Shown piece by piece: positions 34,625 through 60,143 of a stretch of DNA of 64,000 nucleotides. The notes under the pieces are model-generated. The model was not told the DNA's origin. It did not search any database and saw nothing but the letters and a program-made list of their open reading frames with translations. The stretch spans positions 66,528,001 through 66,592,000 of the forward strand of contig NC_086108.1 in the NCBI RefSeq assembly GCF_963921235.1. Reading direction: 5' to 3'. Source of the stretch: Mobula hypostoma (taxonomy: Eukaryota). How positions within the stretch are numbered: position 1 is the first letter of the stretch; every line of letters begins with the position of its first letter. Both the position numbers and the translations under genes were made by a program.

Positions 34625-34888
34625 AACTGAAAGAAGAGCTAGTAAGAGATTTGAAAGTGGGAGGGGGAGGGAGAGATCTGAAATGAGAAGACAGGAGGGG
34701 GAGGGATGGAGCTAAAAGCTGGAAAGTTGATTGGCAAAAGGGATATGAGGCTAGAGAAGGGAGAGGATCATTGGACGGGAGGCCTAGGGAGAAAGAAAGG
34801 GGGAGTGGGGTGTACTGACCTCTAAGTTGCCAAGGCACAGCAACAACTGGCGGATACCTCCTCTTATTTACCCCTTGATCAGGATCCC

Positions 34889-36573
34889 ATGAAGGAGCAC
34901 CAAGCCATTGTCTCCCACACCATCACCAACTTTATCAGCTCAGGGTATCTCCCATCCAATACTGCAAACCTTATAGTTCCCACACCCTGCACTTCCCATT
35001 TCTACTTCCTACTAAACATCCACAAACCTGCCTGTCCAGGTAGACCCATTGTCTCAGCTTGCTCCTGCCCCACCGACTCATTTCTGCATACCTCGACATT
35101 GTTTTATCCCCCTTTGTTCAATCCCTTCCTACCTATGTTCGTGACACTTCTCTGGCTCTGAAACTTTTCGATGATTTAAAGTTCCCTGGCCCCCACCACT
35201 TTATTTTCACCATGGATATCCAGTCCCTATACACCTCCATCCCCCACCAGGAAGGTCTCAAAGCTCTCCGCTTCTTTTTGGATTCCAGACCTAACCAGTT
35301 CCCCTCTACCACCACTCTCCTCTGTCTAGCGGAATTAGACCTTACTCTTAATAATTTCTCCTTTGGCTCCTCCGACTTCCTCCAACCTAAAGGTGTAGCC
35401 ATGGGTACCCATATGGGTCCCAGCTATGCCTGCCTTTTTGTTGGCTTTGTGGAACAATTCATCTTCTAAGCCTATACTGGTATCTGTCCCCCACTTTTCC
35501 TTTGCTACATCAACGACTGCATTGGCGCTGCTTCCTGCATGCATGCTCAGCTCGTTGACTTCATTAACTTTGCCTCCAACTTTCACCCTGCCCTCAAGTT
35601 TACCTGGTCCATTTCCAACACCTCCCTCCCCTTTCTTGATTTTTCTGCCTCTGTCTCTGGAGACAGCTTATCTACTGATGTCTACTATAAGCCTACGGAC
35701 TCTCACAGCTACCTGGACTATTCCTCTTCCCACCCTGTCTCTTACAAAAATGTTATCCCCTTCTCGCAATTCCTCTGTCTCCACCGCATCTGCTCTCAGG
35801 ATGAGGCTTTCCATTCCAGGATGAAGGAGATGTCCTCCTTTTTTAAGGAAAGGGGCTTCCCTTCCTCCACCATCAACTCTGCTCTCAAACGCATCTCCCC
35901 CATTTCAAACACATCTGCTCTCACCCCATCCTCCCACCACCCCACTAGGAATAGGGTTCCCCTTGCCCTCACCTACCACCCCACCAGCCTTCGGGTCCAA
36001 CATATAATTCTCCGTAACTTCCACCACCTCCAACGTGATCCTATCACCAAGCAGACCTTTCCCTCCCCCACCCCTTCTGCTTTCCGCAGGAATCACTCCC
36101 TACGCGACTCCCTTGTCCATTCGTCCCCCCACCATCCCTTCCCACTGATCTCCCTCCCCGGCACTTATCCTTGTAAGCACAACAAGTACTACACATGCCC
36201 TTACACTTCCTCCCTTACCATCATTCAGGGCCCCAGACAGTCCTTCCAGGTGAGGCGACACTTCACCTGTGAGTCGACTGGGGTGATATACTGCGTCCGG
36301 TGCTCCGGATGTGGCCTTCTATATATTGGCGAGACCCAATGCAGGCTGGGAGACCGTTTTGCTGAACACCTACGTTTGTCCGCCAGAGAAAGCAGGATCC
36401 CAGTGGCCACACATTTTAATTCCACATCCCATTCCCATTCTGATATGTCTATCCACGGCCTCCTCTACTGTCAAGATGAAGCCACACTCAGGTTGGAGGA
36501 ACAACACCTTATATTCCGTCTGGGTAGCCTTCAACCTGATGGCATGAACATTGACTTCTCTAACTTACATTAA
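34889..36573 (+). pseudogene. disrupted PLE ORF: reverse transcriptase + GIY-YIG endonuclease
   Basis: KPACPGRPIVS, FTMDIQSLYTSIPH, GVAMGTHMGPSYA, YIND (YIDD mutated), linker Cys motif (CxxxxYxxC here, CxxxxCxxC in copy 2), VIYCVRCSGCGLLYIGET...EQHLIFRLGSLQPDGMN; frameshift near 35070 and stop at 35467-35469. Confidence 0.9.
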
Positions 36574-37530: not shown

Positions 37531-39770
37531 GCAAACACAAGGAAATCTGCAGATGTTGGAATTTCAGGCAACACACACAAAAACTACTACTGAACACAGC
37601 AGGCCAGGCAACATCTATAGGAAGAGGTACAGTCAATGTTTCGGGCCGAGACCCTTCGTCAGGACTAACTGAAAGACGAGATAATAAGGGATTTGAAAGT
37701 GGGAGGGGGAATGGGGAGATCCGAAATGATAGGAGAAGACAGGAGGGGGAGGGATGGAGCTAAGAGCTGGAAAGTTGATTGGCAAAAGGGATATTTTGCT
37801 GGAGAAGGGAGAGGATCATGGGATGGGAGGCCATGGGAGAAAGAAAGGGGGAGGGGGGAAGCCCAGAGGATGGGCAAGGAGTATAGTGAGAGGGACAGAG
37901 GGAAAAAAAAGAGAGAGAAAAAAAAAATTAATAATAAATAAATAAATAATGGATGGGGTACGAAGGGAAGGTGGGGCATTAACAGAAGTTAGAGAAGTCA
38001 ATGTTCATGCCATCAGGTTGGAGGCTACCCAGATGCAATATAAGGTGTTGTTCCTCCAACCTGAGTGTGGCTTCATCTCAGCAGTAGAGGAGGCCGTGGA
38101 TAGACATATCAGAATGGGAATGGGATGTGGAATTAAAATTTGTGGCCACTGGGAGATCCTGCTTTCTCTGGCTGACAGAGCGTAGGTGTTCAGTGAAACT
38201 GTCTCCCAGTCTGCGTCGGGTCTCGCCAATATATAGAAGGCCGCATCGGGAGCACCGGATGCAGTATATCACCCCAGCCAACTCACAGGTGAAGTGTTGC
38301 CTCACCTGGAAGGACTGTCTCGGGCCCTGAATGGTGGTGAGGGAGGAAGTGTAACGGCATGTGTAGCACTTGTTCCGCTTACAAGGATAAGTGCCGGGGA
38401 GGGAGATCGGTGGGAAGGGATGGTGGGGACGAATGGACAAAAGAGTCCCATAGGGAGCGATCCTTGCGGAAAGCGGGGGAGGGAAAGATGTGCTTAGTGG
38501 TGGGATGCCATTGGAGGTGGCGGAAGTTACAGAAAATTATATGCTGGACCCGGAGGCTGGTGGGGTGGTAGGTGAGGGCAAGGGAACCCTATTCCTAGTG
38601 GGGTGGCTGGAGGATGGGGTGAGAGCAGATGTGTTTGAAATGGGGGAGATGCGTTTGAGAGCAGAGTTGATGGTGGAGGAAGGGAAGCCCCTTTCTTTAA
38701 AAAAGGAAGACATCTCCTTCGTCCTGGAATGAAAAGCCTCATCCCAAGAGCAGATGCGGCGGAGGCAGAGGAATTGCGAGAAGGGGATGGCATTTTTGCA
38801 ATGGACAGGTTGGGAAGAGGAATAGTCCAGTTAGCTGTGAGAGTCCGAAGGCTTATAGTAGACATCAGTAGATAAGCTGTCTCAAGAGATAGAGACAGAA
38901 AGGTCAAGAAAGGGGAGGGAGGTGTTGGAAATGGACCAGGTAAACTTGAGGGCAGGGTGAAAGTTGGAGGCAAAGTTAATGAAGTCAACGAGCTGAGCAT
39001 GCGTGCAGGAAGCAGTGCCAATGCAGTCGTCGATGTAGCAAAGGAAAAGTGGGGGACAGATACCAGTATCGGCTTGGAACATGGATTGTTCCACAAAGCC
39101 AACAAAAAGGCAGGCATAGCTGGGACCCATACGGGTGCCCATGGCTACACCTTTAGTTTGGAGGAAGTGGGAGGAGCCAAAGGAGAAATTATTAAGAGTA
39201 AGGACTAATTCCGCTAGACGGAGGAGAGTGGTGGTAGAGGGGAACTGGTTAGGTCTGGAATCCAAAAAGAAGTGGAGAGATTTGAGACCTTCCTGATGAG
39301 GGATGGAAGTATATAGGGACTGGACATCCATGTGAAAATAAAGCCGTGGGGGCCAGGGAACTTAAAATCATTGAAAAAATTCAGAGCGTGAGAAGTGTCA
39401 CGAACATAGGTAGGAAGGGATTGAACAAGGGGGGATAAAACAGTGTTGAGGTATGCAGAAATTAGTTCGGTGGGGCAGGAGCAAGCTGAGACAATGGTTC
39501 TACCTGGACAGGCAGGTTTGTGGATCTTGGGTAGGAGGCAGAAACGGGAAGTGCGGGGTGTGGGAACTATAAGGTTGGTAGCAGTGGATGGGAGATCCCC
39601 TGAGCTGATAAAGTTGGTGATGCTGTGGGAGACAATGGCCTGGTGCTCCTTAGTGGGGACATGATCGAGGGGTAAATAAGAGGAGGTATCCGCTAGTTGT
39701 CGCTGTGCCTCGGCAAGGTAGAGGTCAGTACCGCAGACTACAACAGCACCCACCTTATTGGCGGGTTTTA
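37531..39770 (-). mobile_element. Penelope-like element (RT + GIY-YIG), frameshifted and 5'-truncated
   Basis: Minus ORFs: LLPKIHKPACPGR, MDVQSLYTSIPH, QTKGVAMGTRMGPSYA, YIDDCIG, CKRNKCYTC, IYCIRCSRCGLLYIGET; full terminal repeat with a CpG-decayed hammerhead at 37631-37666. Confidence 0.95.
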
Positions 39771-40666
39771 TAGATAGTATAGTATTGTGGGTGGTGGGGG
39801 TGGTGGTAGTGAGAGGTGAAAGAGGTTAGGCAGGTGACAGAACAGAAAAATAAATAAAAAGAAATCACATCAAATTATCATTTATAACAGTAATTAACAA
39901 CTTTCAAATGTTCAATTGCTGAGAATGTGTTTACTATCAGTTCATTACTTACCTAGAGAACCATGGTTTGAAAAAAGAATAGTGCCCACTGCTGGGAAGT
40001 CATTGATTGCTTTCATTGTAGTGATCTTCATGCTGAACAAAATTAGCATAGGGGACTGCAGAGGCTGTGCAGTGATGGGTTTCTATACAGTGTCAGTCTC
40101 GTGCCCTCAATGTCAAGGTCACTTTTGAAAGTCAAACACTTTCACAGGAATCACAGTTAGGGCAAGTGCATGATGTCCAGACCTGAAGTCTTCCAAGTCA
40201 CCCATTTCTGGAGGAATTGTGTATCCTTGACTTCCTCCCACCCATCTTTACTTAAGCAACATTGGCTGTATCTGTACATTGGTGTCAGTTTTTATTCCAA
40301 ATACATTTAAATTCTAAAGGTGCAACATAATGCAGTGAGCCATATGCCCACCAAGGGTCCCCAGGGGCCACCATATGCCTTTCCAGGTGGACCTGCAGGA
40401 TTTTTGTTGGAGCCACAAGTAAAAAAAGCAGAAGTCTGGGAGCCACATGAGTTTCTAAATGGGCCACGATAAGTTTACTGCTTTAGTGAGATATTACTAA
40501 AATATTTTATATTTTACTGTTACAACATTTTATTAATATACATTTTATTTCATTTTTACAATATTTCTGCTGTTATGAATCAGAGCACATATGAAACTAC
40601 TCAAGTCATCCCCTTGAGCAACTCAACAGTGTTGAAGCGTATAGATGAGATGTCAGATGATATGGG

Positions 40667-42667: not shown

Positions 42668-43170
42668 TAAAATTGCAGAATGATGATCTGATTGTATATC
42701 TTGATCATTTGAAACAACTGCACACTGATATGGAATTTCAGCCAGAGTCCTGCTGGAGATGCATATTCCAGATTGGGTCGTGGATGTGAATGATGTGGAC
42801 AGCACATTGCAAGAATGTCTTTTTGAGCTGCAGAGTGATATAACAGCTCAAGCAAAATTCAAACACAGCAAGAAAAATTCTGGATAACAAGTGATAGTCA
42901 AAATAAATTTCCACAGCTCTGGGAGAAACCAAAGTTGTTTTTAATTGGGTTTCCTACCCCTTATCTAGTTGATTGTGGTTTTAGTCAAGCTCTTCATCTG
43001 CTATCAAAAGCTCATAACTGCCTTGATGTTGTATTAAGGAATGATCTTTGATTATCTTTAGCTGTGTTGCATCCAGATAGTCAAACGCTCACTAGTTTGC
43101 ATAAGTTGCAAGGATCTCACTGAGTACCCAAAGTAACAATATTAAGTGCTTTTTCATTGCTTCTGGTTGG

Positions 43171-43631
43171 TCGGTTAGCATCCATGTGTCTCAATGGACA
43201 AAGGATGATCATCATCAGCATCACAAGCCTGGGCGGATGGTACAGAAATCCTGAGATGCCCAGTTGTCAAGATCTCTCTCTCAGCCTCACCAGTATAGTC
43301 CAAAGGAAAGCTTATGAAGCAATACGTTTAGCACCAGCTTGGTTGCAGGAGCTGCTGGAAGGATGTTCAATGATGTCCAGCTGCCTTAGGGGCTCTGGAT
43401 TTGCTGTCTGGGTTTACTCCCGTAACCTTCATCTCTTCCAAAGCTGCCCACAAGGCAATGGGGCTATTTATCCATAGCTGGACACCTGATTCATGAACAC
43501 CAGGGCATGTCAACGCAGCAGTGGGCCTGCGTGCTATGTATGCGGAGGCCAGGTCTCCTCCCCATCTTCTGTAGTTCAGCCAAAGTCCAAAAGGAGTGCA
43601 GTTTCCGTGAATCACCAGCGAGGAGGCACTA
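43171..43631 (-). mobile_element. non-autonomous RTE-derived element with an HDV-like ribozyme head
   Basis: 8-bp TSD ctggttgg (43163-43170 and 43632-43639); minus-strand 3' end CATCC...GGATG stem followed by ctaaccga and the TSD ccaaccag; body homologous to 8272-8871; no ORF2. Confidence 0.7.
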
Positions 43632-43632
43632 C
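43571..43632 (-). ncRNA. HDV-like ribozyme fold, 5'-truncated (P1 5' strand missing)
   Basis: Minus strand: P2 GUAGU, P3 GCC, L3 UCCUCGCU, P3' GGU, P1' GAUUCAC, P1.1 GG, P4 region, J4/2 G-C-UGA, P2' ACUAC. Confidence 0.7.
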
Positions 43633-44367
43633 TGGTTGGAAGAATATTATATTATGTTTTAAATAAAGTAACCTATTCAGAGCTTTGAAATAGATTTATT
43701 TTTCATAGGTACTTGTGACATTATATTTAACATAATAATACCTATGAACTGTTAAAACATAAATATTGACTTATATTAGAATAATTAGTACAGTTGACCA
43801 AAAAAATACTTTAGTAAAACTAACTGAGACTATGGAGGGTGGAGGCCACAGAGATAAATGAAAGTCACAAGTGGGCACCAGCAGAAAAAGGTTAAGAACC
43901 ACTGACATAATGCACATTGTTGTTGAGAATTGTCTGTTCTCAAAAGTGACTCCTCTAAAGGTAGGAACTTAGAAACCTCTTTATTCTAGGGTTTTTCATA
44001 AAAGGGAGTAACAGTGAAGAACATGTACTCAGTGGTTTCAATATTGGTCAAAGGAACACATAAAAATTATAGTGTTCTAGCTTTCCAGTCATTTACAAGT
44101 TTTACACATCTTATCATTATGAAATATCTTTCTTATGGTAATATAAACATTTGTTGAACTACTGCAGCACAATCATCTAGCAATGATGTAAAAATACAAA
44201 TATTTGTGTCCAAAAGCCAATAACCCAATGTATCTCAGCTCTAAGGAAGGACATTTTTAATATGTTTTACTGGTGACATTTATTTGGTGAAAACCCATCT
44301 GCTAAGTTCCATGAAAGCACTGTAATTCAAACCTTTTTAGAAAGTTTATTCAATACAGTTGGGTGTT

Positions 44368-45891
44368 CTTCTTCTGAGGTTTTATGGTGGTTGGCAGACA
44401 GCTTTAAGGTGCATTACCACCAACTTCTGAACAGGGGTGTGGGTCAGGATATCTAAATCCTATATATTTATATTTGTATCAAATTTTATGAAAAAGACCT
44501 GTATTCTTAAGGAATACCACTATATTTTAAAGCAATAATCCTGTGATTCTTTCTGTGAAGTACTGTTAATGTTAAATTGTATTTTATTCTGTGATAACTT
44601 TAAAATCAATCATCCCTTCTCTTGATTATATCTTGAACACCTCACCAGTACGTGCTCAACCGTTCCTTGTTGATGACAATACTCACACCTCCTATTGTGT
44701 TTCTTCATTAAAAACAATGTACAATTTAATCCTGTGTACCCAAACCTCAATCTCAATATTATCACCTCCCCCCCCCTTACTCTTTCCTACGTTCCTCAGC
44801 CATCCCACTTCTTTCTGGATAACATAAAGATATCTTCCTCTTCTCTCTTCATCCCATTGTTTTTTCCACATTTTTGTTTATTTCACTTAATAATGTTTTT
44901 CATTTCTCCTTTTCTGTGATTTATTTGAATATCCGCTTCTGCTCGTCTAGTTGTCTGCTTTGCTAATCTATCTGCTTGCTCATTGCCTCCAATACCAACA
45001 TGTGGAATCCGCATAAAACATATACAGAGTCCCATCGTTTTAAGTCTAAATAATGTTTGTAGTATTTCACACAGAATGTCTGGTCTTGCCTCTGAATGTA
45101 AATCTTTTAGACTCCTGATTGTTGTGCTTGAATCAGACAATATTACAACTCTTGTCCATCTCACTTCCTTCGCCCACTGCAGAGTGAATAGACCTGCGGT
45201 CATTTCACCTGTGTACATTGAGAAATCATCATTTCTCCTCACCTGCTTTTTACTGTTAAAAGCCAGGCACTATGAATCCTACTCCTTGCTACTATTACCA
45301 TTTTTGGATCATCTGTATATATTTGTAAATATCTATAATGATTATTGTTTATTTAAGATTGAACTATACCTTGATTTAAAATCACTTCTCTATTTCTCTG
45401 TCTTCTTTTGAATAATTTAAGATCCACCTCTGGTGCTTCAAGCAGCCTTGGAGGCACCCCAGGAAAAGGCATCATGGCATTTCCTACCTTATTGATAATT
45501 CCTGTCCTTTCTGCTTTTCCTTCAATAGTCCATGCAAAAATTCCAATTTTCTTTCTTTCCTTTTCACAGCATGGATCTGAAAGCTGTTTTGCTGGGTGGT
45601 TTTCTCCATGTCCTTGTAGGTTTACCCAATATGTTAACACAAGCTGTGTCCTTCTCAGTTCCAGAGGTGTCTCTCCCAACTCCATCTGCATTGCCACCAC
45701 TGGTGTGTCCTTATTGCCCCACAGATTAACCTTATTGCTTGACTTTGACCTATATCCAGTTTCTTGAGCGTACTGTGTAATGCTGATCCATATACCACAC
45801 TTCCATACTCCAGTATTGATCTTATTGATCCTCTATATATTGCTTTCAAGGATTTCCTATCAGCTCCCCATTCCTTTCCTGTCAAACAACT
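44368..45891 (-). mobile_element. RNase H-containing LINE (Nimb/I group), 5'-truncated and decayed
   Basis: WGADRKSLKAIYRGSIRSILEYGSVVYGS (RT C-terminus); VILSDS...IPHVGIGGNEQADRLAK (RNase H); (GAA)n tail; possible aged 12-bp TSD cagttgggtgtt (44356-44367) / cagctggatgct (45892-45903) differing by three transitions. Confidence 0.85.
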
Positions 45892-52950: not shown

Positions 52951-55885
52951 AACATAGAAATATAGAAAACCTACAGCACAATACAGGCCCTTCGGCCCAC
53001 AAAGTTGTGCCGAACATGTCCCTACCTTAGAAATTACTAGGCTTACCCATAGCCCTCTGTTTTTCTAAGGTCCATGTACCTATCCGGAAGGCTCTTAAAA
53101 GACCCTATCGTATCGACCTCCACCACAGTTGCCGGCAGCCCCTTCCACGCACTCACCACCTTCTGCGTAAAAAAACTTACCCTGACATCTCCCCTGTACC
53201 TACTCTCCAGCACCTTAAACCTGTGTCCTTTTGTGGCAACAATTTCAGCCCTGGGAAAAAGCCTCTGACTATCCACACTACCAATGCTTCTCATCATCTT
53301 ATACACCTCTATCAGGTCACCTCTCATACCCCGTCGCTCCAAGGAGAAAGGGCTGAGTTCACTCAACCTGTTTTTATAATGCATGCTCCCCAATCTAGAC
53401 AACATCCTTGTAAGTCTCCTCTGCACCCTTTCTATGGCTTCCTCATCCTTCCTGTAGTGAGGCGACCAGAACTGAGCACAGTACTCCAAGCAGGATCTGA
53501 TCAGGGTCCTATATAGCTGCAACATTAGCTCTTGGCTCCTAAATTCAATTTCATGATTAATGAAGGCCAATACACTGTATGCCTTCTTAACCACACAGTT
53601 AACCTGTGCAGCTGTTTTGAGTGTCCTATTGGACTCGGACCTCAAGATCCCTCTGATCCTCCATACTGCCAAGAGTCTTACCATTAATACTATATTCTGC
53701 CATCATATTTGACCTACCAAAATGAACCACTTCACACTTATCTGGGTTGAACTCCATTTGCCACTTCTCAGCCCAGTTTTGCATTCTATCAATGTTCTGC
53801 TGTAACCTCTGACAGCCCTCCACACAATCCACAACACCTCCAATCTTTGTGTCATCAGAAAACTTATCAACCCATCCCCCCACTTCCTCATCCAGCTCAC
53901 TTATAAAAATCATGAAGAGTAAGGATCCCAGAAAAGATCCCTGAGGCACACCACTGGTCACCAACCTCCATGCAGAATATGACCCGCCTACAACCACTCT
54001 TTGCCTTCTGTGGGCAAGCCAGTTCTGGATACACAAAGCAATGTTCCCTTGGATCCCAAGCCTCCTTACTTTCTCAATAAGCCTTGCATGGGGTACCTTG
54101 TCAAATGGCTTGCTGAAATCCATATACACTACATCTACTGCTCTTCCTTCATCAATGTGTTTAGTCACATCCTCAAAAAATTCAATCAGGCTCGTAAGGC
54201 ACAACCTGCCCTTGACAAAGCCATGCTCACTATTCCTAATCATATTATGCCTATCCAAATGTTCATAAATCCTGCCTCTCAGGATCTTCTCCATCAACTT
54301 ACCAACCACTGAAGTAAGACTCACTGGTCTATAGTTTCCTGGGCTATCTCTACTCCCTTTCTAGAATAAAGGAACAACATCCGCAACCCTCCAATCCTCT
54401 GGAACCTCTCCCATCCCAGTTCATGATTCAAAGATCATTGCCAGAGGCTCAGCAATCTCCTCCCTTGCCTCCCACAGTAGTCTGGGGTACATCTCATCCA
54501 GTCCCAGCGATTTATCCAACTTGATGCTTTCCAAAAGCTCCAGCACATCCTCTTTCTTAATATCTACATGCTCAAGCTTTTCAGTCCACTGCAAGTCAGC
54601 ACTACAATCACCAAGATCCTTTACCACAGTGAATACTGAAGTAAAGTATTCATTAAGTACCTCTGCTATTTCCTCCAGTTCCATACACACTTTCCCACTG
54701 TCACACTTGATAGGTCCTACTGTTTCCTGTCTTATCCTCTTGCTCTTCACATACTTTTAGAATGCCTTGAGATTCTCCTTAATCCTGCCCATCAAGGCCT
54801 TCTCATGGCCCCTTCTGGCTCTCCTAATTTCATTCTTAAGCTCCTTCCTGTTAGCCTTATAATCTTCTAGATCTCTAACATTATCTAGCTCTCTGAACCT
54901 TTTTGTAAGCTTTTCTTTTCTTCTTGACTAGATTTATTATAGCCTTTGTGCACCACGATTCCTGTACCCTACAATATCTTCCCTGTCTCATTGGAACGTA
55001 CCTATGCAGAACTCCACAGAAATATCCCCTGAACATTTGCCATATTTCTTCCGTACTTTTCCCTGAGAACATCTGTTCCCAGTTTAAGCTTCCGATTTCC
55101 TGCCTGTCAGCCTCATAATTCCCCTTACTCCAATTAAACACTGTTCTAACTTGTTGGTTCCAATCTCTCTCCAATGCTATTGTAAAGGAGATAGAATTAT
55201 GATCACAATCCCCAAAATGTTCTCCCACTGAGAGATCTGACACCTGACCAGGTTCATTTCCCTATACCAAATCAAGTACAGTCTCTCCTCTTGTAGGCTT
55301 ATCTACATATTGTGTCAAGAAACCTTCCTGAACACACCTAACAAACTCCACCCCATCTAAACCCCTTACTCTAGGGAGATCCCAATCAATATTTGGGAAA
55401 TTAAAATCTCCCATCACGACAACTTTGTTATTATTACATCTTTCCAGGATCTGTTTCCCTATTTACTCCTCGATATCCCTGTTACTATTGGGCGGCCTAT
55501 AAGAAACACCCAGTAATGTTATTGACCCCTTCCTGTTCCTAACCTCCACCCACAGAGACTCCATAGACAATCCCTCCAAAGCCTCCACCTTTTCTGCACC
55601 CGTGACACTATCTCTGATCAACAGTGCCATGCCCCCACCTCTTTTGCATCCCTCCCTGTCCTTTCTGAAACATCTAAAACCCAGCACTTGAAGTAATCAT
55701 TCCTGTCCCTGAGCCATCCAAGTCTCTGTAATGGCCACCACATCATAGCTTCAAGTACTGATCCATGCTCTAAGCTCATGTGTTTTGTTCACAATACTCC
55801 TTGTGTTAAAATACACATCTCAGACCGTCTGTCTGAGCGTGTCCCTTCTCTATCACCTGCCTATCCTCCCTCACACACTGTCTCC
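52951..55885 (-). mobile_element. CR1 LINE with near-complete ORF2 (APE endonuclease + RT), frameshifted
   Basis: FRKDREGCKRGGG...YRPPNS (endonuclease), GDCDHNSI, LDKSLGLDEMYPRLL, DFSKPFDKVPH, GVPQGSFLG, KFSDDTKIGG, LEYCAQFWSP, TKGHRFKV; tail (TTTCTATR)n at 52951-52968. Confidence 0.95.
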
Positions 55886-58637: not shown

Positions 58638-60143
58638 CAATAGACAATAGACAATAGGTGCAGGAGTAGGCCATTCGGCCCCTTTGAGCCAGCACCACCA
58701 TTCACTGTGATCATGGCTGATCATCCACTATCAGTATCCAGTTCCTGCCTTATCCCCATAACCTTTGATTCCGCTATCTTTTAAGAGCTCTATCCATCTC
58801 TTTCTTGAAGTATCCAGAGACTTGGCCTCCACAGCCTTCTGGGGCAGAGCATTCCATATATCCACCACTCTCTGGGTGAAAAAGTTTTTCCTCAACTCCG
58901 TTCTAAATGGCCTACCCCTTATTCTTAAACTGTGGCCTCTGGTTCTAGACTCACCCATCAGCGGGAACATGCTTCCTGCCTCCAGCGTGTCCAATCCCTT
59001 AATAATCTTATATGTTTCAATAAGATTCCCTCTCAGCCTTCTAAATTCCAGAGTATACAAGCCCAGTGGCTCCAATTTTTCAACATATGACAGTCCCGCC
59101 ATCCCGGGAATTAACCTTGTGAACCTACGCTGCACTCCCTCAATAGTAAGAATGTCCTTCCTCAAATTTGGAGACCAAAACTGCACACAGTACTCCAGGT
59201 GTGGTCTCACCAGGGCCCTGTACAGCTGCAGAAGGACCTCTTTGCTCTTATACTCAATTCCCCTTGTTATGAAGGCCATTAGCTTTCTTCACTGCCTGCT
59301 GTACTTGCATGCTTGCTTTCAGTGACTGATGTACAAGAACATCTTTTCCTTTTCCTAACTTTTCCTAACTTTACTCCATTTAGATAATAATCTGCCTTCC
59401 TGTTCTTAGCACCAAAGTAGATAACCTCACATTTATCCACATTAAACTGCATCTGCCATGCATCTGCCCACTCACCCAGCCTGTCCAGTCACCCTGCATT
59501 CTCATAACATCCTCCTCACATTTCACACTGCCACCCAGCTTTGTGTCATCAGCAAATTTGCTAATGTTACTTTTAATTCCCTCATCTAAATCATTAATAT
59601 ATATTGTAAACAGCTGCAGTCCCAGCACTGAACCCTGCGGTACCTCACTGGTCACTGCCTGCCATTCCGAAAGGGACCTGTTAATCGCTACTCTTTGTTT
59701 TCTGTCAGCCAGCCAATTTTCAATCCATGTCAGTACTCTGCCCCCAATACCATGTGCCCTAACTTTGCCCACTAATCTCCTATGTGGGACTTTATCAAAG
59801 GCTTTCTGAAAGTCCAAGTACACTACATCCACTGGCTCTCCCTTGTCCATTTTCATAGTTACATCCTCAAAAAATTCCAGAAGATTAGTCAAGTACGATT
59901 TCCCCTTCATAAGTCCATGCTGACTCAGACTGATCCTGTTACTGCTACCCAGATGTTTCGTAATTTCATCTTTTATAATTGACTCCAGCATCTTTCCCAC
60001 CACTGACGTCAGGTCTATAATTCCCTGTTTTCTCTCTTCCTCCCTTCTTTAAGAGAGGGACAACATTAGCCACCCTCCAATCCACAGGAACTGATCCTGA
60101 ATCTATAGAACATTGGAAAATGATTACCAATGCGTCCACGATT
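58638..60143 (-). mobile_element. CR1 LINE, 5'-truncated, relatively young
   Basis: ORFs 59380-60003 and 58731-59279 (DFQKAFDKVPH, QGSVLG, KFADDTKLGG, RPHLEYCVQFWSP, TRGHSLRIRG); (TCTATTG)n tail at 58638-58657. Confidence 0.95.

Follow-up and report, generated by a model that had tools for sequence, protein, structure and literature searches.

HDV-like ribozymes predicted at the 5' ends of a non-coding, RTE-derived repeat family in the genome of Mobula hypostoma

A stretch of 64,000 nucleotides from Mobula hypostoma (contig NC_086108.1, positions 66,528,001 to 66,592,000 of the forward strand; hereafter, the window) carries on its minus strand a short repeat whose first bases had been interpreted, in a preliminary description, as the core of a self-cleaving ribozyme of the HDV-like kind heading a non-autonomous element derived from RTE. 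The questions raised by this locus were whether the fold is more than a fortuitous arrangement of letters, and whether self-cleavage could define the element's 5' end. Read off the sequence, the minus strand from 43632 to 43571 matched the HDV-like parse exactly, and the letters and places that had been assigned to each helix were all correct; the features of the copy are listed in Table 1.

Table 1. Features of the element copy at 43163-43639 of the window.
Feature	Position in window	Strand	Remarks
5' TSD copy, 8 bp	43632..43639	-	final base doubles as base 1 of the truncated element (G, also P2 base 1)
P2 5' strand, inner 5 nt	43628..43632	-	outer P2 extension, 154-nt J1/2 and P1 5' strand (family positions 1-167) lost by 5' truncation
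P3 - L3 - P3'	43614..43627	-	P3 43627-43625, L3 43624-43617 (8 nt), P3' 43616-43614
P1' strand	43607..43613	-	GAUUCAC, two changes from family GACACAC; partnerless in the window copy
P1.1 GG	43605..43606	-	predicted pairing with CC in L3
P4 region	43580..43604	-	four differences from the family; lower helix not intact in the window copy
J4/2 CUGA	43576..43579	-	catalytic C predicted at 43579; families A, B1 and B2 have identical letters here
P2' and 3' strand of family P2 extension	43566..43575	-	P2' is 43575-43571
Conserved RTE 5'-UTR domain	43464..43481	-	also seen in RTE-3_BF (325-) and Ceph-SINEs; by-eye comparison with the available part of the PMC5786205 supplement
Segment like RTE-12_AMi 134-237 (5' UTR)	43348..43444	-	about 60 of the first 69 bases equal the family majority, counted by eye
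A1-specific inverted TGA/TCA-repeat segment	43205..43223	-	stands in place of a different A2 hairpin
3'-terminal motif with small hairpin	43177..43204	-	likely LINE recognition end; layout common to B1, B2 and the tRNA-like-headed SINE
Short (AACC/ACC)n-type tail of subfamily A1	43171..43176	-	
3' TSD copy, 8 bp	43163..43170	-	

The window copy was 87% identical to the majority sequence of its family (family A), and its TSD resembled the tail repeat of the element itself. Besides the changes in P1' and the broken lower P4, its P3' read GGU, leaving one G-U pair in P3 where the family majority has GGC (CpG decay). Since its first base corresponds to family position 168, the copy is 5'-truncated. 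Neither GUGAAUC nor the family P1 strand was found within 300 nt upstream, in agreement with the earlier remark that the P1 5' strand is missing and the copy probably inactive; as P1 cannot form, the copy is predicted to be dead. It is very likely inactive, and is in itself an ordinary dead fragment.

A search of the same genome yielded 2,818 first-look candidates for family A, of which the best 40 were scored, with 82-84% identity to the window copy. Shared sequence continued upstream in 28 of the 29 fetched loci other than the window copy, mostly by 150-180 nt; the full-length element measures about 632 bp and has no ORF, so that the length of about 460 bp first proposed is that of a copy starting at position 168. 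A 21-nt pattern of the 5' end gave 155 exact matches (control, 0), and among 30 loci found via the 3' end alone, five of which repeat earlier loci, 15 started at consensus positions 1-7 and 19 within positions 1-15. Non-CpG divergence was about 6% in every region (6.3% in the core, 6.2% elsewhere), and the frequent second alleles were of the CpG type, with a single exception in the repeat segment close to the 3' end; these samples represent one main lineage of dead copies. No covariation was detected within family A, which, together with the unexceptional conservation of the core, is expected for dead copies.

Where they were clear, the duplications flanking family A copies were mostly of 7-14 bp, and those of RTE measure 7-15 bp (PMC6007223). 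A microsatellite tail, variable duplications, 5' truncations and the lack of an ORF fit a bipartite non-autonomous RTE. In 54 copies, the share of T climbed to 43-50% at some 20-25 nt upstream, a distance counted from the element start and not from the duplication start; in the insertion signature of RTE, a T stretch precedes the duplication by about 10 nt. Contigs from sequencing runs of four organisms covered 27 of 30 bins of a full-length copy, which speaks for presence and not for expression, such contigs being unable to reveal where copies start, and a pattern scan of metagenomes for the family gave 0 matches. Small local clusters of family A copies (L261, L262, L263 and L264, C82 and C85; L004, L021 and L033, C96) share private changes, including damaged P2 or L3, and likely arose by segmental duplication or gene conversion, not by new retrotransposition.

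Full-length copies whose 5' strand is complementary to P1' had been sought to complete the fold, and they were found: the first bases of these copies are that strand. It lies about 165 nt upstream of the core, and not in an extension of 7-15 nt as had been anticipated, and it reads G(U)GUGUC; the predicted GUGAAUC was the wrong target, because the GAUUCAC of the window copy is a decayed GACACAC. Classification of 133 copies distinguished two subfamilies, the second of them (A2) found through a variant 3'-end pattern and represented by few copies. In A2, which has a CAT tail, GUGUGUC opened four of the five copies with a 5' end, as it did 3 of 15 unclassified copies, and with GACACAC it makes a perfect 7-bp P1. 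In A1, which has an AACC tail and includes the window copy, a 5' end was present in 72 copies. None of these showed GUGUGUC, and 36 started with GG(U/C)GUC; the other 36 lacked the full GG start through truncation by 1-3 nt or mutation. The P1 formed by GGUGUC in A1 comprises G1-C and five Watson-Crick pairs, 6 bp in all, and leaves one A bulged.

A2 shares a 3' segment with sister family B1 and with a tRNA-like-headed SINE, whereas in A1 this segment has been replaced; divergence was 10.8% in A2 (12 copies) and 9.1% in A1 (98 copies), both samples being biased by their route of discovery. Because of the shared segment and the slightly higher divergence, A2 is likely the ancestral, older subfamily, from which A1 would derive. 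The replacement segment of A1 (compared in the window copy with L266-L282) is unrelated to the A2 hairpin, although it also folds as a hairpin, and its inverted TGA/TCA repeat looks like the old CAT tail joined to its reverse complement.

The J1/2 of family A spans 154 nt, with a long predicted basal helix and a folding z of -2.05, and P2 is predicted to extend to 10 pairs with one bulge; the J1/2 values were -3.19 for B1 and -0.99 for B2, the latter no better than shuffles. Family positions 22-38 of J1/2 (for example in L025 and L037) hold a near-copy of P1' at 22 and a strand for the bottom five P1 pairs at 32; these two strands pair together in the predicted fold, so that neither would compete with P1. 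The strand at position 32 was discarded as an internal alternative P1 strand, since it is not used as a start.

A pattern search led to the sister families B1 and B2, and B1 is about 70% alike to family A over positions 371-581. First-look candidates numbered 7,562 for B1 and 7,200 for B2, two sets that likely overlap. Elements of both B1 and B2 (about 600 bp) start with GGUUCC, and with the GGAAC(C/U) strand that directly follows P3' these bases form a perfect 6-bp terminal P1. As the B starts pair with their own P1', four subfamilies whose letters differ have the cut-site helix at base 1. Their heads have no P4, a hairpin inserted in L3 and an extended P2. Between consensuses, compensatory changes were seen in P1, P2 and P1.1 (A versus B) and in one P2 pair (B1 versus B2): P2 is UGUAGU/ACUACA in A, CUCUUG/CAAGAG in B1 and CUCCUG/CAGGAG in B2, and P1.1 is CC/GG in A and UC/GU in B, with P3 and CUGA constant. 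All the covariation thus rests on three or four consensuses, since none was present within A, and the expectation that P2 and P3 would be conserved or covary is borne out between families only. The A and B ribozyme regions gave no BLAST alignment with each other, so the homology of the heads is deduced from their common layout and the downstream body. The sampled loci were L158 and L161-L190 for B1 and L217 and L232-L255 for B2, with (TAC)n and (CTCA)n-like tails.

A T just before the first G was present in 57% of 54 copies of A, 64% of 28 of B1 and 44% of 16 of B2, and a preferred target, or an A added to the cDNA without a template, may account for it. Its participation in P1 was ruled out, as it is enriched alike before A, B1 and B2 and often lies within the duplication.

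A relaxed descriptor of the core (P2, P3 with one G-U allowed, L3, P1.1, C-N-R-A and P2'), composed after the sequence was known, had a single match on both strands of the 64-kb window, at the 43632-43571 site, and 0 matches in 423,306 bases of other loci; it also matched 4 of 3,000 dinucleotide shuffles of the window element. A strict descriptor, comprising the core and the terminal P1, matched the family consensus and 0 of 3,000 consensus shuffles, and did not match the window copy. Among family copies, the core was kept in 19 of 99, and the core with terminal P1, by the strict descriptor, in 4 of 99. The nested order P2-P3-L3-P3'-P1'-P1.1-P4-J4/2-P2', with a P2 of at least 5 bp, is present in the family. 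In the J4/2 of family A the C was conserved in 88 and the A in 100 of 102 copies, and the G of L3 was kept in 68 of 101, with a CpG-type A in 26. U and G in L3, and the catalytic C and a constrained A in J4/2, are features of HDV-like ribozymes in the available text of PMC3774820. The parse of 43632-43571 is not a chance one. Rfam, on the other side, reported no HDV-like family in the window element or in four full-length copies; the long J1/2 would likely defeat the Rfam HDV-like models. Two Rfam matches outside the element were dismissed as chance.

That J4/2 reads CUGA instead of CNAA had been noted as a caveat. It is no defect, because CUGA is common to all families and a stop codon in J4/2 occurs in 18 of 19 Drosophila R2 ribozymes, according to the accessible text of PMC3414825.

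In a by-eye comparison with the available part of the PMC5786205 supplement, the family A body matches RTE-3_BF 325-414 and RTE-12_AMi 134-237, the latter in about 60 of the first 69 bases (about 87%, a by-eye count); sister family B also carries the second half of the RTE domain. The tRNA-like-headed SINE (L159:1277-1575, L160:1058-1575) has only the downstream part of the same RTE-derived body, with a similar 3' end and without the ribozyme, and a ribozyme-less, tRNA-headed relative of this kind is as expected by PMC5786205, in the part available. A coding partner with the family 3' end was found neither among the 30 3'-end loci nor among 17 variant-end loci, all of them non-coding. A DUF6451 search gave 145 places; among the 70 whose 3' end was examined, and the six followed over longer stretches, none shared the family 3' end with an RTE frame; further partner patterns returned more non-coding relatives or chance matches only. 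These partner searches score the best candidates only. As no coding partner was found, mobilisation by an RTE is what we infer from the body. One RTE (L151:1760-4813, minus strand) has an uninterrupted 1,018-codon endonuclease-RT-DUF6451 frame, a (GAA)n tail and a 5' UTR that looks short or truncated; it was rejected as the partner, having other ends and no match to the core descriptor.

No B box was found upstream of family position 609, even at one mismatch, and one A-box-like match lies in J1/2 at position 38. ARAGORN reported no tRNA in three family A loci, a weak negative because it also missed the tRNA-like head of L159/L160. The proposal of a ribozyme-headed, non-autonomous, RTE-derived element was upheld by the 5' strand, the covariation, the RTE 5'-UTR body and the lack of a B box or tRNA, and had to be amended in size and in the letters and distance of P1.

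Judging from these sequence patterns, we favor, with a probability of roughly two in three, the reading that the full-length ends are set by HDV-like ribozyme self-cleavage and that the copies were mobilised by an RTE. A source copy would be transcribed by read-through from a host promoter, and its RNA would fold into the double pseudoknot, with the J1/2 helix and the extended P2 holding P1 and P2 together, as was measured for Agam-2. The C of J4/2 would then cut 5' of G1, freeing the element RNA from the longer host transcript and leaving a compact, nuclease-resistant 5' end. An RTE protein acting in trans would bind the 3' hairpin and tail and prime reverse transcription at a tail-like target sequence, and early stops of reverse transcription would yield truncated copies such as the one in the window. 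A1 would derive from A2 and still cut, perhaps more slowly. R2 ribozymes have a P1 of 6-7 bp, a P2 of at least 5 bp, a variable P4 and a J1/2 of up to more than 700 nt, and the family layout falls within these ranges for P1, P2 and J1/2, as they are given in the accessible part of PMC3774820; a structured J1/2 with an extended P2 speeds cleavage (PMC4908430, available text). Pairing between leader and tail in family A was unsupported (duplex of -28.2 kcal/mol against -29.9 +/- 2.7 for 100 shuffled tails).

Three other explanations seem improbable to different degrees. A chance arrangement in an ordinary repeat, the least probable of all, could draw on the empty Rfam result and on a relaxed descriptor that was composed post hoc and also found in the 4 shuffles, whereas in four subfamilies, whose letters differ, the missing strand lies precisely at the 5' terminus, and the strict descriptor was absent from all 3,000 shuffles. 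Only slightly less remote is a Pol III SINE driven by the A-box-like motif of J1/2, with the ribozyme likeness incidental: it has that one match at position 38 in its favor and, against it, the lack of a B box upstream of 609, the (weakly informative) ARAGORN result and a terminal P1 pairing that covaries across families; Rfam, too, gave no match that would identify such a SINE. An internally deleted, ribozyme-headed LINE that came from, or was mobilised by, Vingi, Ingi or another clade instead of RTE is improbable too; no RTE partner with the family 3' end appeared among the loci examined, and in the available text of PMC5786205 both clades also give bipartite elements, with Ingi-3_AC and R4-1_ADi carrying the conserved domain, yet two separate segments of the body match RTE 5' UTRs, one of them at about 87% over 69 bases to RTE-12_AMi, and family B has the second half of the RTE domain as well.

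A more serious competitor, which we nevertheless consider unlikely, is a genuine fold, passed down from an RTE ancestor, that no longer cuts, at least in A1; an internal Pol II start, or an exonuclease that trims up to the fold, would then set the 5' end, and the fold would only stabilise the RNA. The bulge of A1 weighs against cleavage because it adjoins the cut site and a single P1 mismatch can abolish cleavage (PMC3774820, in the part available). The accessible text of PMC11331408 reports that ribozyme structure alone improves template use, leaderless heads being intermediate, and that of PMC3383444 that the L1Tc head is promoter and ribozyme at once. On the other hand, a catalytic-C mutant was severely impaired (PMC11331408, same portion), all four consensuses (A1, A2, B1 and B2) retain CUGA and the catalytic C, the new first base G can pair with the last C of P1', and the internal strand at position 32, with its five bottom P1 pairs, went unused as a start.

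If self-cleavage does define the ends, A1 would have multiplied once the helix at its cut site had changed from 7 perfect bp into 6 bp carrying a bulged A, and would represent a natural bulge-tolerant or slowed HDV-like ribozyme in a vertebrate clan formed by A1, A2, B1 and B2 (thousands of copies each for A and B); we put this forward as a possible, rather doubtful, extension. Slow cutting might then have been favored, as it would do less harm to host pre-mRNAs with an inserted copy. The A2-to-A1 change in P1 is a small natural experiment.

The genomic HDV ribozyme, which is viral and has a J1/2 of 3 nt, has the same letters as family A in P3, the 8-nt L3 and the two-pair P1.1, and there was no sign of descent between the two. 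The drz-Agam-2-1 ribozyme of Anopheles is linked to RTE. It resembles family A in its large structured J1/2 and extended P2, of 12 bp against 10 bp with a bulge, and differs in being tested and fast, with no P1 bulge mentioned in the available text of PMC4908430, whereas the ribozyme of family A is predicted. The closest parallels in layout are R2 SIDEs and R2/R1 hybrid SIDEs of Drosophila, which, like family A, are non-coding, of about 500-600 bp, with a 5' HDV-like ribozyme (a predicted one in family A), a long J1/2, a 3' end derived, or in family A probably derived, from a LINE and no Pol III head; they are trans-mobilised and their ribozymes were shown to cleave, and they are rare and confined to 28S rDNA, whereas family A is dispersed in thousands of copies over a 3.5-Gb genome and derives from RTE (PMC3414825, accessible text). 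NARTc and RIME of trypanosomes (L1Tc/ingi clade) are likewise internally deleted LINEs with an HDV-like ribozyme at the first base, although their 77-nt head is also a promoter and belongs to the Ingi clade, in contrast to the 233-nt head and RTE body of family A (PMC3383444 and PMC5786205, parts available). Bipartite vertebrate RTEs (RTE-N2_Lch, WALLSI3, RTESINE2 and Bov-A) join, as family A probably does, the 5' part and 3' end of an RTE, with a microsatellite tail and no ORF; bipartite elements have been proposed to keep the ribozyme-bearing 5' end of the LINE, and the available text gives no ribozyme structure for any vertebrate member (PMC5786205). Some SINEs use HDV-like ribozymes, according to the accessible part of a review (PMC6765202).

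The kind of element is thus already known from flies and trypanosomes (R2 SIDEs and NARTc), and what is new here is a vertebrate family of internally deleted LINEs with a predicted ribozyme head. The literature we searched described neither this family nor a ribozyme of this type in an RTE derivative of a cartilaginous fish, which does not establish its absence from print; vertebrate RTE ribozymes may be listed in the supplements of Ruminski 2011, Webb 2009 and Kojima 2011. Whether the ribozyme explains the bipartite elements of RTE, Ingi and R2 was left open by Kojima, in the available text of PMC5786205. Family A and its sisters add vertebrate cases with thousands of dated copies, a subfamily pair differing by one base at the cut-site helix, and a ribozyme-less relative. 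With these cases one can test whether RTE-type mobilisation requires cleavage or the fold alone, and whether selection in introns acts against intact heads in sense orientation. RNA-only gene-writing systems also make use of RTE ends (PMC13708176, part available).

Other retroelement remains were observed in the window. A LINE fragment at 44883-45832 (minus strand), whose RNase H match is weak (E 0.00024) and falls short of the Pfam cut-off, lies 1.3 kb upstream of the element and outside its TSD, and no link between the two was seen. Decayed reverse-transcriptase-bearing repeats, which by their motifs we take to be Penelope-like and CR1-like, occupy 34826-36573, 38078-39825, 53043-54760 and 58731-60048, with RVT_1 confirmed for 53629-54360.
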